From IMG/VR virus record IMGVR_UViG_2778261346_000016, positions 1 to 9,852 of that record: a stretch of DNA of 9,852 nt; one strand, written 5' to 3'. The notes below the pieces were generated by a model. It did no database searches, had not been told where the DNA came from, and was given only the letters and a program-made list of their open reading frames with translations. Shown in pieces: positions 7,281 to 9,852 of this stretch. This DNA comes from a virus. Lineage: Duplodnaviria > Heunggongvirae > Uroviricota > Caudoviricetes. The position numbers and the translations under genes are program-made. Numbering within the stretch: the first letter of the stretch is position 1; every line of letters starts with the position of its first letter.

Positions 7281-7451
7281 TCAGAATGGACACGGCCCAA
7301 GGAAATAACGCTGATTTAATACTTCAGTCTTTGCCGCATTTAAAAATACGCGAACACCTTCACGATCTCCCTTCTGGCGATACATTAACGCCTGCTGCGT
7401 GTACATGCGTCTCTGTAACTTGCTCTCCTTCACTGTGGTTGCAAGTGACAT
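7281..7451 (-). CDS. small ORF, 56 aa (sits where P22 has arf)
   Basis: Hand-translated: MSLATTVKESKLQRRMYTQQALMYRQKGDREGVRVFLNAAKTEVLNQRYFLGPCPF. ATG 7451..7449 with AAGGAG SD 7 nt upstream; stop is 10 nt before the erf start. Overlaps the alternative ORF 7360..7530 in another frame. Confidence 0.35.
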   Translation of the reverse strand: MSLATTVKESKLQRRMYTQQALMYRQKGDREGVRVFLNAAKTEVLNQRYFLGPCPF

Positions 7452-7530
7452 GAATATCTCCTTCGTTACCGATTAAATCTTTCATCTGACGAATGAATTC
7501 TTCGTCTGACCAGTTATCTGTAAAACTCAT
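7360..7530 (-). CDS. alternative small acidic ORF, 56 aa
   Basis: Hand-translated: MSFTDNWSDEEFIRQMKDLIGNEGDIHVTCNHSEGEQVTETHVHAAGVNVSPEGRS. ATG 7530..7528 forms an ATGA overlap with the Kil-like stop, but the SD is weak. Overlaps 7281..7451, so at most one of the two is likely real. Confidence 0.25.
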   Translation of the reverse strand: MSFTDNWSDEEFIRQMKDLIGNEGDIHVTCNHSEGEQVTETHVHAAGVNVSPEGRS

Positions 7531-7679
7531 TTCCTGCGATACAACGGAAGGTTGATAGCTGATTTCATCGCTTTATTTGCTTCAAGCCACATTTTTGAAT
7601 CACCAATAAATCTGGCTATTACTGCTTTGTTCTGTGCAGCACGAAGCATCTGGTGATTGATGGCTATTTCATTGCGCAT
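7527..7679 (-). CDS. kil: Kil-like small protein, 50 aa
   Basis: Hand-translated: MRNEIAINHQMLRAAQNKAVIARFIGDSKMWLEANKAMKSAINLPLYRRK. ATG 7679..7677 with GGAGG SD 4 nt upstream. The core IARFIGDSKMWLEA resembles my recollection of lambda Kil (IATFIGDEKMFREA). Position between cIII-like and the recombination genes matches lambda/P22 synteny. Confidence 0.45.
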   Translation of the reverse strand: MRNEIAINHQMLRAAQNKAVIARFIGDSKMWLEANKAMKSAINLPLYRRK

Positions 7680-7798
7680 AACGCCTCCAGTTGTTTCTTT
7701 GCTGCTCTGATTAATTGTTTAACTCGGCGTGATAATTCAGATTCGTGCGGGTAGAAAGCGGACATGACGCCGCTACCCGCGAGCTGAAAGTGCATCAT
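7664..7798 (-). CDS. cIII: cIII-like protein (FtsH inhibitor family), 44 aa
   Basis: Track ORF 7664..7903 trimmed to ATG-ATG 7798..7793, with AAGGAG SD 7 nt upstream; the longer version would run through a terminator. PHESELSRRVKQLIRAAKKQLEAL resembles the lambda cIII amphipathic core PSESLLERITRKLRDGWKRL (recalled). Confidence 0.5.
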   Translation of the reverse strand: MMHFQLAGSGVMSAFYPHESELSRRVKQLIRAAKKQLEALCAMK

Positions 7799-7861
7799 GG
7801 GTAACTCCTTATATTTGATTGCATAACGAAAACGCCTCGAGTGAAGCGTTATTGGTATGCA

Positions 7862-7888
7862 TATAAAAAAGCCCTCACACTGGAGGGC
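7862..7888 (-). terminator. intrinsic terminator for leftward transcription (tL-like)
   Basis: GCCCTC / GAGGGC 6-bp GC stem (7871..7876 and 7883..7888) with a 6-nt loop, followed on the minus strand by TTTTTTAT (7870..7863). Confidence 0.55.
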
Positions 7889-7950
7889 AAAGAAGATTTC
7901 CAATAATCAGAACAAGTCGGCTCCTGTTTAGTTACGAGCGACATTGCTCC

Positions 7951-7978
7951 GTGTATTCACTCGTTGGAATGAATACAC
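7951..7978. repeat. perfect 9-bp inverted repeat GTGTATTCA / TGAATACAC with 10-bp spacer
   Basis: Read directly at 7951..7959 and 7970..7978. No adjacent U-tract on either strand, so it is not a classical terminator. Confidence 0.5.
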
Positions 7979-8007
7979 AGTGCAGTGTTTATTCTGTTGT
8001 TTATGCC

Positions 8008-8032
8008 AAAAATAAAGGCCGACTATGCGGCC
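8008..8032 (-). terminator. intrinsic terminator immediately after the 60-aa moron gene
   Basis: GGCCG / CGGCC 5-bp stem (8017..8021 and 8028..8032) with a 6-nt loop, followed on the minus strand by TTTATTTTT (8016..8008). The stop codon of the 8033..8215 gene abuts the stem. Confidence 0.45.
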
Positions 8033-8215
8033 TCAGAATGGTTTATATCCATTTTTAAAGGCGAAATCGTATGCCTCATCCTTAGTGCTGAAGTATTCAT
8101 AATCAGCAAATCCATCACGATAAAACTTGCAGCACCAATGATGCGGAATGCCATCCTCAGGACCATAGTCTTGATGGAACACATCCTCGACGATGATATT
8201 TTCATCTTTTCCCAT
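8033..8215 (-). CDS. small acidic aromatic-rich protein, 60 aa (moron; function unknown)
   Basis: ATG 8215..8213 with AGGTGA SD about 5 nt upstream; TGA 8035..8033 followed directly by a terminator. The locally AT-rich segment (about 7985..8280) contrasts with its flanks. About 13 D/E against 6 K/R. Confidence 0.5.
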   Translation of the reverse strand: MGKDENIIVEDVFHQDYGPEDGIPHHWCCKFYRDGFADYEYFSTKDEAYDFAFKNGYKPF

Positions 8216-8277
8216 ATATCACCTAAAATAAGTGGTTTGCTGCCAAAACAATGAACCATCCGGAAATTCCAGATAGT

Positions 8278-8505
8278 TCATAATTCACTCTTCAATACTT
8301 CCAACTTACTAATCGCCGATAGATATCCGCGCTGATAGGGAATCATCATTCCTTCGAGCTTGCCACTTCTTAACTCCTCCCTGAGCAATTGTATTGCTTG
8401 ATCAATAACCTCTGACTTAGCGTCCTTTATGGCTTGCTTGCGGGGCTTTGCTTTCTGCTTTGGCAGATTTCTCAAGCATGATGGAATGTATGTCTGATTC
8501 ACCAC
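8278..8505 (-). CDS. possible small protein, 75 aa, GTG-initiated (low confidence)
   Basis: ORF beginning at GTG 8505..8503 immediately after the N-like TAA. No ATG start or clear SD; it may be real (coupled to N) or spurious. Confidence 0.25.
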   Translation of the reverse strand: MVNQTYIPSCLRNLPKQKAKPRKQAIKDAKSEVIDQAIQLLREELRSGKLEGMMIPYQRGYLSAISKLEVLKSEL

Positions 8506-8778
8506 TTACCTCGCCGTCAGTTGTTTTGATTTCCGGTATCCTGCCGCGTAAATAGCTACGTTTGGCAGGCAAACACTTCCACTGCATTCATCTGCCTTCT
8601 TGCAGCGAAGGCTTCCGAGTGATGCTGCTTTGTCTGCTCTGACGCAACCAGAGAGCTTTCGCGCAATTTTTCGCGCCAGTCGCTGCTCTTGCATTGCCTG
8701 TTCACGTTGAGCCTGTCTGCGTGCTCTGCGGCGATTTCTGGCGTTATCGTCAGCCAGATATGTAATGACTACTGTCAT
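8506..8778 (-). CDS. N: N-like transcription antiterminator with N-terminal arginine-rich motif, 90 aa
   Basis: ATG 8778..8776 with GGAGGT SD 6 nt upstream. N-terminal NARNRRRARRQAQREQ resembles the lambda N arginine-rich motif (TRRRERRAEKQAQW, recalled). First gene downstream of the nutL-like site and operator/promoter region on the same strand. Confidence 0.55.
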   Translation of the reverse strand: MTVVITYLADDNARNRRRARRQAQREQAMQEQRLARKIARKLSGCVRADKAASLGSLRCKKADECSGSVCLPNVAIYAAGYRKSKQLTAR

Positions 8779-9223
8779 GTTGACCTCCGATGATTGACTT
8801 TGGTGATTGGATGGCCGGTGCTGAATTCCGGCTTACTGGTTAGAGCGCCCGCACTACCAGTGACGCTGTCTTGAGGCGCAGATTGGTTACTGCTTGCCAT
8901 GAGCGCTGTTTATACATTGGTCGAGCATCAGCCTGCTCATTCATCCAATCCCAAAGCCAACTACTCTTTGACTCACACTCTCGCAGTGAGCGCGCTCATG
9001 CCCTTGAGTCTCTGCCGCTTCATCGCCGCTGATAACCGGTGCGCGTCTGGCATTCGCGCTGCTTTACCGGAGCTACTTTTAATATATTGACCCTAACCCG
9101 ATGCTAAGCAGGCTCGCTCAATGGCGACTCAGGGCAGCATCATTACTGCTGCATTTCCTTTCGGCTGCGGTCTAACCGCGTTAGTGCACCATTACGGCAC
9201 CTCCTGTTTGGTTAAACTCAGTT

Positions 9224-9263
9224 CCCGCATTTCGGCGGGACAATCCCATCAATGTTAAAGAGC
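9224..9263 (-). promoter_or_regulatory. nutL-like site: boxA plus boxB hairpin
   Basis: Minus strand reads GCTCTTTAACA (reverse complement of 9253..9263), close to the recalled boxA consensus (rrn boxA TGCTCTTTAACAA; lambda CGCTCTTA). A 13-nt spacer is followed by hairpin CCCGC-CGAAAT-GCGGG (9239..9224). Confidence 0.45.
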
Positions 9264-9304
9264 CTGCCAATCTGTTCCGTTTGGCTTCCAGCGTCCTGCT
9301 GATG

Positions 9305-9400
9305 GCTAAAGAATACTGTAGGTATTTTATTGTGTAAATACCCAAGGTATTTATTTTTGATGAAATAATGATAAACAAATGAATACAAAGGATATTTATT
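9305..9400 (-). promoter_or_regulatory. oL/pL-like region: three 17-bp operator palindromes overlapping a leftward promoter
   Basis: Perfect 7-3-7 palindrome AAATACC-CAA-GGTATTT at 9336..9352; imperfect copies GAATACT-GTA-GGTATTT at 9311..9327 and GAATACA-AAG-GATATTT at 9381..9397. Minus-strand candidate -35 TTTACA (9338..9333), 17-nt spacer, -10 TATTCT (9315..9310), about 40 nt upstream of boxA. Confidence 0.45.
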
Positions 9401-9483
9401 TGTTTCGGTGTCTGCTTGTTCAGTGCTTTTTATGCGGGATATGTGAAGTGGATCCCGATAGCTATTGCTGCCGGGATTATGGG

Positions 9484-9852
9484 TTAGTCAGCGAAGGTTA
9501 AGACGAGAATTACCTTAATGATGTCTGCTACAACAGACACGGCCATAGATAAACCAAAGACGATCCAAGCCATAGAGATGTCTTCACTACCATCGTATAG
9601 GGTTCCGTAATCACTGGTGTAAGGCGTAAATGTCGCGCCTTGATACAATAGGTATAAGCTTGATCCATAGAGGATAAATGCAGATATCCCTTGTATTGCT
9701 ATGATCACTAGAATCATGAAACGAGCTGATCTATGCGCCCAAGCCTGGCTTATTTTTTCTGATAGAGATTTCGCAATAAAAGCATGCGCTAAGCCGTAAA
9801 TTGTTGAGATTGCCAACATCCCCAAAAAGCTTGCTATAGCGGTTCCAACCAT
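9484..9852 (-). CDS. hydrophobic membrane protein, possibly 5'-truncated by the window edge (occupies the lambda rexB-like position)
   Basis: ORF runs to the window end with no upstream stop visible, so the ATG at 9852 may be internal. Multiple long hydrophobic stretches. Sits on the far side of the operator region from the N-like gene. Confidence 0.45.
   Translation of the reverse strand: MVGTAIASFLGMLAISTIYGLAHAFIAKSLSEKISQAWAHRSARFMILVIIAIQGISAFILYGSSLYLLYQGATFTPYTSDYGTLYDGSEDISMAWIVFGLSMAVSVVADIIKVILVLTFAD

Follow-up and report, generated by a model that had tools for sequence, protein, structure and literature searches.

The end of an HK620-type immunity operon: an accessory membrane-protein gene, hkaS, followed by a 3' stem-loop

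The right end of a 9,852-nt stretch of caudoviricete DNA (IMG/VR virus record IMGVR_UViG_2778261346_000016, positions 1 to 9,852; this whole stretch is called the window below) poses two connected questions. What is the hydrophobic protein encoded where phage lambda has rexB, and what is the element of three CGGGAT/ATCCCG hexamers that lies just 3' of its stop codon? A sequence-only reading of the window had proposed an exclusion or abortive-infection component whose partner gene or genes lay beyond the window, followed by two mutually exclusive hairpins that form a regulatory switch or a binding site. In our reading, the window ends on its right in the distal portion of the repressor (immunity) operon from a lambdoid prophage with HK620 immunity; the membrane-protein gene, hkaS, comes second after the repressor gene cI and closes the operon, and the hairpin at 9452-9477 (hairpin 1) forms its 3'-terminal stem-loop and matches lambda tIMM in position. 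Taken as a whole, the picture that we consider rather probable is that of an HK620-type immunity operon end with accessory hkaS and a 3' stem-loop, in which Rho would stop transcription and the stem-loop would protect the message. The argument turns on the following elements.

9484-9852, minus strand: hkaS, product "unknown" in the HK620 annotation; cI lies immediately upstream
9452-9477, minus strand: hairpin 1, with arms at 9452-9462 and 9467-9477 (inverted repeat I5)
9435-9440: third hexamer, CGGGAT on the plus strand and AUCCCG in the mRNA, which could pair with 9452-9457; it lies within the C-rich tract
9398-9449, minus strand: C-rich, G-poor, unstructured and untranslated spacer from hairpin 1 to the third operator; candidate Rho-loading tract, resembling a Rho utilization (rut) site
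9381-9397: operator-like 17-mer GAATACAAAGGATATTT, matching 10/12 positions of the consensus AAATAC-N5-GTATTT
9373-9405: AT-rich palindrome with 13-bp arms (inverted repeat I3, direct-repeat family D1), overlapping the tIMM of the HK620 record

The locus was compared with ~125 related loci that we collected. Over its last 650 bases the window matches two Shiga toxin 2c (Stx2c)-converting phages at 100% identity and coliphages HK620, HK630, HK140, mEpX2 and others at 98-99%. Among 5426 complete E. coli genomes, 146 contain this stretch (~2.7% of sequenced E. coli). The gene hkaS is present in HF4s as well as in HK630, HK140, mEpX2 and the two Stx2c phages; the copy in the window is 98% identical to hkaS of HK620 (AF335538, AAK28867.1) and 100% identical to that of Stx2c phage LC645408. 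When the features of the HK620 record were converted to window coordinates, we found the same gene (98-100%), the same order of cI, hkaS, OL/pL and N, and the same operators, with no material difference. The HK620 record leaves hairpin 9452-9477 unannotated, and it places tIMM and OL3 otherwise than conservation suggests.

We found that the hkaS open reading frame (ORF) runs on the minus strand from 9852 to 9484 and encodes 122 aa, with its ATG as the last triplet of the window and its TAA stop at 9486-9484. Rightward extension, which the sequence-only reading had named as a check, was possible through a 100%-identical locus (L002) and showed a complete ORF, separate from any larger gene. The next gene is cI, encoding a 238-aa HTH_3/Peptidase_S24 repressor whose end lies 18 nt upstream of the hkaS ATG. 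The gene thus sits between the repressor and OL/pL, in the rexB-like position that had been recognised from the sequence, and the partner gene expected beyond the window gives way to cI itself. The junction reads TGA-tcacgcaaGGGGGcgctt-ATG and contains a good Shine-Dalgarno sequence, AAGGGGG, 6 nt ahead of the ATG; a scan of this junction found no sigma-70-like promoter or terminator. Because of the 18-nt gap, the Shine-Dalgarno sequence of its own and the lack of a promoter or terminator between the two genes, hkaS would be co-transcribed with cI from pRM in the lysogen, and it appears to borrow this promoter. The ratio of nonsynonymous to synonymous substitution rates (dN/dS) is 0.10-0.22, which together with the invariant 122-aa length and the conserved motifs indicates that hkaS is a real gene under purifying selection. 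Two other coding interpretations were tried and rejected. A Cys-rich ORF of 40 aa on the plus strand (9379-9501), overlapping the hairpins, has no Shine-Dalgarno sequence, and the length of an A-run (A6-A8) in close relatives shifts its frame. A type I toxin-antitoxin reading of hkaS was discarded as well, the protein being too large and an antisense promoter being absent.

Hairpin 1 starts 7 nt past the hkaS stop. In the minus-strand mRNA it consists of 7 bp, an internal 1x1 mismatch, 3 bp and an AAUA loop, which gives a stable G+C-containing stem of 10 bp with 6 G-C pairs. Its folding energy is -13.7 kcal/mol (z = -2.9 against shuffles), with pair probabilities of 0.85-0.99 and an occupancy of 99%, and the interrupted 10-bp stem is a real hairpin. 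No U-tract follows it (tail CCACUUCACAUAUC), as the sequence-only reading had remarked, and a terminator scan of the minus strand from the hkaS stop to pL was empty. Because it lacks a U-tract, hairpin 1 falls outside the definition of an intrinsic terminator.

The hairpin is conserved in the Hafnia-type relatives, where it differs at 3 of 29 nt. One of these changes turns a G-U pair into A-U and the other two lie in the loop (AAUA to GAGA), so that every stem pair is kept; both flanks are divergent, and the hkaS coding sequence of this type has a synonymous divergence (dS) of 0.66. Support for hairpin 1 therefore consists of conservation and compatible changes and not of covariation. A 15-nt, poly-C-containing insert lies between the hkaS stop and the hairpin in the Hafnia type, and a C9/C10 run-length polymorphism was seen just after the hkaS stop in two such copies (L007 and L008).

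Other members of the comparison carry unrelated sequences in the same place. Relatives in Salmonella have an unrelated 12-bp stem after the stop (-19.5 kcal/mol) with a poor U tail. A Buttiauxella relative (L012) has AACCCGGACUCCGAUCCGGGUUUUUUAUU after the stop, a textbook intrinsic terminator, Serratia phage vB_SspS_OS31 has GCCCAGCugaauGCUGGGCUUUUUCUU directly after cI, and lambda has AACCCGGCCUCAGCGCCGGGUUUUCUUUG, its tIMM, directly after rexB. Each relative, as well as lambda and OS31, thus places one stable stem-loop (-12 to -19 kcal/mol) shortly after the last stop. A U-tract is added in lambda, OS31 and Buttiauxella, and the hairpins of the E. coli, Hafnia and Salmonella types are U-less. 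Lambda offers the closest parallel: in its cI-rexA-rexB operon an accessory membrane-protein gene is likewise last behind pRM and next to OL, and a stable stem-loop, which starts a few nt at most from the last stop, precedes a C-rich spacer up to OL3. The lambda pRM and pLIT transcripts terminate at TIMM, directly downstream of rexB (bioRxiv 10.1101/2021.04.19.439022). The two systems differ in that the lambda stem-loop, a proven intrinsic terminator, carries a U-tract, whereas the hairpin of the window is without one.

The spacer that follows hairpin 1 has an unusual composition. The 60 nt from 9449 down to 9390 contain 17 C and 6 G; among all 60-nt segments of the window's minus strand, this one belongs to the top 1% by C-G excess and to the top 0.35% by C/G ratio, and it is essentially unstructured (minimum free energy -1.6 kcal/mol). 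A spacer with more C than G follows the stem-loop in the relatives, lambda and OS31 as well; it extends for 83-100 nt up to OL3, and 75-100 nt separate the last stop codon from the third operator. The last ORF is thus followed by a stable, U-less stem-loop, and downstream of this lies a C-rich, G-poor, unstructured tract. In E. coli, Rho-dependent transcripts end just past stable stem-loops without U-tracts (Dar and Sorek, PMC6061677); such stem-loops guard against the exonucleases PNPase and RNase II, with rut sites directly 3' of them (PMC6061677). Because the U-tract is absent and a rut-like tract comes after the hairpin, the anatomy matches this Rho-dependent class of protective stem-loops.

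By this analogy, the most likely role of hairpin 1 is to mark the 3' end of the message from the repressor operon and to protect it. Ribosomes would leave at the hkaS stop, and Rho would then load on the C-rich spacer and stop RNA polymerase before or at the repressor-occupied OL operators. Exonucleases working in the 3'-5' direction would trim the message back to the hairpin, which would stabilise the cI-hkaS mRNA, and together these steps would keep pRM transcription out of N. The structure, position and conservation of the hairpin and the composition of the spacer, on which this proposal is built, were observed directly.

The position of the third operator bears on where this transcript ends. 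The operators and the corresponding features of the HK620 record are as follows.

9311-9327: OL1 operator, GAATACTGTAGGTATTT (HK620 annotation, operator scoring and repeat search)
9336-9352: OL2 operator, AAATACCCAAGGTATTT, a perfect palindrome (HK620 annotation, operator scoring and repeat search)
9358-9374: "OL3" of the HK620 record
~9371-9401: "tIMM" of the HK620 record

We found that the 17-mer at 9381-9397 is conserved in all relatives and that its flanks vary. It lies 45 bp from OL2, within the palindrome to which the HK620 record gives the name tIMM, and the same OL2-OL3 spacing is present in OS31. The "OL3" of the HK620 record is not operator-like and is unconserved in the relatives. 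The site at 9381-9397 is probably the true OL3, and the GenBank annotation of OL3 and tIMM in HK620 probably needs revision. Beside this site, an A-run at 9398-9404 varies from 5 to 8 A in E. coli-type copies. In one metagenomic locus (L116), hkaS and the hairpin region are kept and unrelated DNA (AAGTCATGCGCTGTCTGGCGC...) begins ~85 nt past the hkaS stop; the switch point falls exactly at the edge of the OL3-like site and represents a rearrangement or an assembly breakpoint. A further operator-like 17-mer, AGATATCCCTTGTATTG, was noticed inside hkaS at 9682-9698, ~300 bp from OL3. It scores 9/12 and is identical at 14 of 17 positions to the reverse complement of the OL3-like site. As an operator it was rejected, being unconserved in Salmonella relatives of the same immunity type and having another 9/12 match for company at 1756, and its likeness is probably due to chance.

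We then turn to the protein. Kyte-Doolittle analysis of HkaS revealed three hydrophobic stretches, at about 1-27, 41-70 and 90-122. An AlphaFold2 model built from a 7-sequence alignment (mean predicted local distance difference test, pLDDT, 91; predicted template modelling score, pTM, 0.78) contains helices at 2-29, 31-38, 41-74 and 89-121, three of them long, and a short beta-hairpin at ~78-86. HkaS is therefore predicted to be a three-helix inner-membrane protein, and the hydrophobic protein that had been recognised from the ORF translation is borne out by both methods. The distribution of charges, with K28, K33, R41 and R44 in loop 1 and D81, D87, E90 and D91 in loop 2, suggests that the N-terminus is out and the C-terminus in. 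The predicted topology accordingly comprises a basic cytoplasmic loop and an acidic, tyrosine-rich and highly conserved periplasmic beta-hairpin loop. Three motifs are conserved: W38-x-H-R/K-x-A-R-F; Y67-LLYQGATF-x-x-Y-x-S-x-YG-x-x-Y-x-G, in the periplasmic part; and D110-I-x-K113, in helix 3.

HkaS belongs to a tiny orphan family. Its sole PHROGs match is phrog_6534 (E = 1e-78), whose function is unknown; scans of Pfam, NCBIfam and PADLOC gave nothing above threshold, and a Foldseek search of the model against PDB and BFVD gave no match with E < 0.4. A profile search of 1.84 billion representatives returned one full-length relative (a 50%-identity representative), a 44-aa fragment and a giant repeat protein that matches a short loop motif only. 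The family falls into 11 clusters at 90% identity, and our literature search found no publication characterising hkaS. The giant protein of the profile search, a YD/RHS-like repeat protein of 5949 aa (P0013), carries nine copies of ASATFQTYSSGYTTLYEW, which resembles the periplasmic loop QGATFTPYTSDYGTLYDG of HkaS; the E-value of 1.6e-6 is inflated by the repeats, and the likeness may be a coincidence or a shared short beta-hairpin motif.

The relatives also showed how hkaS moves. The order cI, hkaS, OL/pL, N is repeated in relatives from Salmonella, Hafnia and Buttiauxella. HkaS is 60%, 82% and 55% identical in these three, and cI is 86%, 96% and 88% identical, the last figure referring to the C-terminal domain only; HkaS thus diverges faster than cI. 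In the Buttiauxella locus (CBCPKK010000004.1, 2330-3600, uncultured) the N-terminal DNA-binding domain of cI is unrelated (23% identity) and the operators are different, and the C-terminal domain of cI (88%) is kept together with hkaS (55%). This domain swap places a recombination joint inside cI, so that hkaS travels with the C-terminal half of the repressor gene. Conversely, hkaS is missing from OS31 (MT843276, L130 2208-2245), although the cI of this phage is 71% identical and its operators are of the same type; its cI is directly followed by the canonical terminator GCCCAGCtgaatGCTGGGCTTTTTCTT. OS31 is a natural "empty site" for the hkaS insertion, and the gene is therefore dispensable for the immunity module.

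A 57%-identical copy of HkaS without a repressor neighbour was found on a metagenomic contig (L128; SKER01005078.1, 1-2330), between a tRNA-Thr(tgt) gene and a P21-type cassette of holin, lysozyme and Rz. This site is the late-region accessory slot in which stx sits in Stx phages, and the family thus occupies two classical lambdoid accessory-gene slots. In the manner of a moron, hkaS is present or absent among close phages (absent from OS31) and takes different slots (the late region in L128). As for the promoter and terminator of a moron, there is no sigma-70-like promoter between cI and hkaS, and the stem-loop after hkaS is without a U-tract. No partner gene adjoins hkaS in any context that we examined (L002, the Salmonella, Hafnia and Buttiauxella relatives, and L128, where the copy stands alone). 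Because it is absent from OS31 and lies beside the lysis cassette in L128, hkaS is a stand-alone accessory ("moron"-like) gene without a partner. The 84-nt region 3' of the gene was found only together with hkaS, in the same 146 of 5426 E. coli genomes in both searches. A dispersed repeat, such as a repetitive extragenic palindromic (REP)-like element, was rejected on this ground.

Several points weigh against the reading in which hairpin 1 and Rho together end the repressor message and hkaS is an ordinary accessory gene. Compensatory double changes were found in 0 of the 10 stem pairs of hairpin 1, and the covariation test is powerless here; the E. coli-type copies are ~98% identical, and per-site variation across their 78 haplotypes is uninformative. 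The termination and stabilisation steps come from anatomy and analogy. A third complementary hexamer within 30 nt of a real hairpin has, by a rough estimate, a chance of ~1%. HkaS has no homologue of known function in family, profile or fold searches, so that any functional label is a guess. Finally, the authors of the HK620 record put tIMM at the AT-rich palindrome (9371-9401) and not at hairpin 9452-9477, and the hairpin of this palindrome has a U-rich tail and could be a real terminator. The true terminator would then be the palindrome around OL3 (9373-9405), with its 13-nt arms that are 92% complementary and are followed by UUUAUCAUUAUUU, as annotated in AF335538, and hairpin 1 would be a passive stability element or functionless. 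However, conservation in the relatives covers the 17-bp operator core and does not reach the extended arms or the tail, the stem consists almost wholly of A-U pairs and was not accepted by the terminator scan, and the relatives and lambda put a strong stem-loop right after the stop and not at OL3. We regard a terminator at the palindrome as unlikely. The protein, for its part, might be a RexB-like abortive-infection component that needs a sensor partner. It occupies the slot of rexB, it is small, crosses the membrane several times and has conserved charges (D110 and K113) inside its last helix, and TM3 of RexB also holds an acidic residue (bioRxiv 10.1101/2021.04.19.439022). Yet hhalign of the HkaS alignment against lambda RexB aligned 4 columns with a probability of 0.12%, sequence similarity is absent, HkaS has three helices and RexB four, no RexA accompanies it and no partner adjoins it in any context, and Pfam and PADLOC scans contained no Rex match. 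A RexB-like role of this kind is highly improbable.

The hexamers had been taken to suggest a regulatory switch. In such a switch the middle copy would pair with either the 5' or the 3' copy, and a ribosome at the hkaS stop could, for example, mask the 5' arm and let the second hairpin form. CGGGAT at 9435-9440, ATCCCG at 9452-9457 and CGGGAT at 9472-9477 do lie 3' of the stop; all are exact, they alternate in orientation and they are 17 and 20 bp apart. The stop is so near that a ribosome terminating there could cover the 5' arm, and all three hexamers, the third included, are kept in 77 of the 78 distinct E. coli-type haplotypes, though conservation is just as high across the whole region. 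In principle the two hairpins exclude each other, as the sequence-only reading held, but they are not balanced. The alternative hairpin of the middle and third hexamers, with its 11-nt loop, reaches -6.4 kcal/mol against -13.7 kcal/mol for hairpin 1, and with a pair probability and occupancy below 0.01 the ratio of occupancies is 99:1, so that the stabilities are not comparable. Moreover, the Hafnia type keeps hairpin 1 and has ATCTGT in place of the third hexamer, its 15-nt insert moves the hairpin beyond the reach of the ribosome, and the other relatives have one unrelated hairpin. With no U-tract on either hairpin and no downstream cistron on the same transcript, a switch would have no output, and Rfam gave 0 matches at the gathering score and only chance-level ones at E up to 10. 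In dinucleotide-preserving shuffles of the window, at least one triple in which any hexamer follows the order X..rc(X)..X, spaced by 3-30 nt, turned up in 39% (mean 0.56); the real window holds three, two of which are the OL1 and OL2 operators. The triple arrangement is no more than chance, and the third hexamer is probably incidental, a part of the C-rich spacer. We consider an RNA switch very unlikely, and give no more room to a real alternative pairing, for example one triggered by a ribosome that terminates 7 nt upstream of the 5' arm. A role of the hexamers in DNA, as protein-binding sites or as a recombination or module-boundary element, might be seen in the three alternating copies, 17 and 20 bp apart, and in the mosaic nature of the immunity region, with its recombination joint inside cI and the L116 breakpoint. 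But the count of CGGGAT in the window shows no enrichment (6 where 3.8 are expected), the hexamers are unlike the operator consensus, the element is not dispersed and occurs only with hkaS, and the third copy is not conserved. The replacement by unrelated hairpins in the relatives fits a role for RNA structure and not for a sequence-specific site, and we hold a DNA-level role to be extremely unlikely. Likenesses to DnaA boxes and IHF sites, judged by eye, were rejected as too weak.

Protection of a Rho-dependent end by hairpin 1 thus remains the reading that we prefer, and the function of HkaS can be considered beside it. The defence gene bstA of Salmonella phage BTP1 closely follows the prophage repressor gene and precedes pL/N. 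BstA and HkaS share this genomic slot; BstA is large and cytoplasmic and has no homology to HkaS. T4 Imm and HK97 gp15 are small inner-membrane superinfection-exclusion proteins. Like HkaS, P22 SieA (PMC10883804) is a small inner-membrane protein, expressed from the prophage or early, that is encoded by a single accessory gene; it is an analogue and not a relative. SieA, Imm and gp15 differ from HkaS in having no sequence or fold similarity to it and a different position in the genome. The hex gene of phage 434 is another case of a second protein made with the repressor from a lambdoid prophage pRM mRNA (PMC3564112). The hex gene overlaps that of the repressor, and its product acts on cleavage mediated by RecA (PMC3564112), whereas HkaS is a separate downstream membrane cistron without homology to it. 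The context in which HkaS is expressed, its place in the membrane and the conservation of its periplasmic loop make superinfection exclusion, or some other membrane-level function in lysogenic conversion, the likeliest class for it, a guess that we offer tentatively as one possibility.

The region follows a well-known prophage architecture, that of a repressor operon with one accessory membrane-protein gene and an end stem-loop; hkaS was already annotated, yet uncharacterised, and a terminator-type stem-loop is ordinary. A bolder combination can be imagined, in which a translation-coupled switch sets whether pRM transcription stops before OL or reads on to pL/N and HkaS is a single-gene exclusion or defence factor. 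If this were true, the switch would tie how tight immunity is to the translation of the repressor operon, and HkaS would be a new single-gene inner-membrane factor for exclusion or defence in ~2.7% of sequenced E. coli, including Stx phages; we think this combination most improbable. What the locus offers in any case is an orphan protein, confidently foldable and probably expressed in lysogens, that is a cheap and well-defined candidate for exclusion and defence screening. In addition, the occurrence of U-tract and U-less hairpins within one immunity family is a small natural experiment on how pL and N are insulated from pRM read-through.

The remainder of the window is an ordinary lambdoid early-left operon, which includes an ERF recombinase gene and a DUF551 gene. 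Its features nearest to the immunity region are listed here.

9310-9338, minus strand: pL promoter (TTTACA, 17 nt, TATTCT) from the promoter scan, in agreement with the HK620 annotation
~9303-9338: pL in the HK620 annotation
~9223-9264: nutL in the HK620 annotation
8506-8778: N, early-left operon
7664-7903: cIII, early-left operon

The promoter pL drives N and the early-left genes. Further along this operon, on the minus strand at 2991-4402, we noticed tandem Ead/Ea22-like genes of 250 and 220 aa, which are ordinary for lambdoid phages. In the leader between nutL and N, the terminator scan flagged a G+C-rich hairpin on the plus strand at 9133-9162, GCAGCATCATTACTGCTGC followed by ATTTCCTTTC, which is antisense to the pL transcript. 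The N leader of lambda carries an RNase III site. By analogy, the stem that this sequence forms on the pL transcript could be a leader structure like that site.

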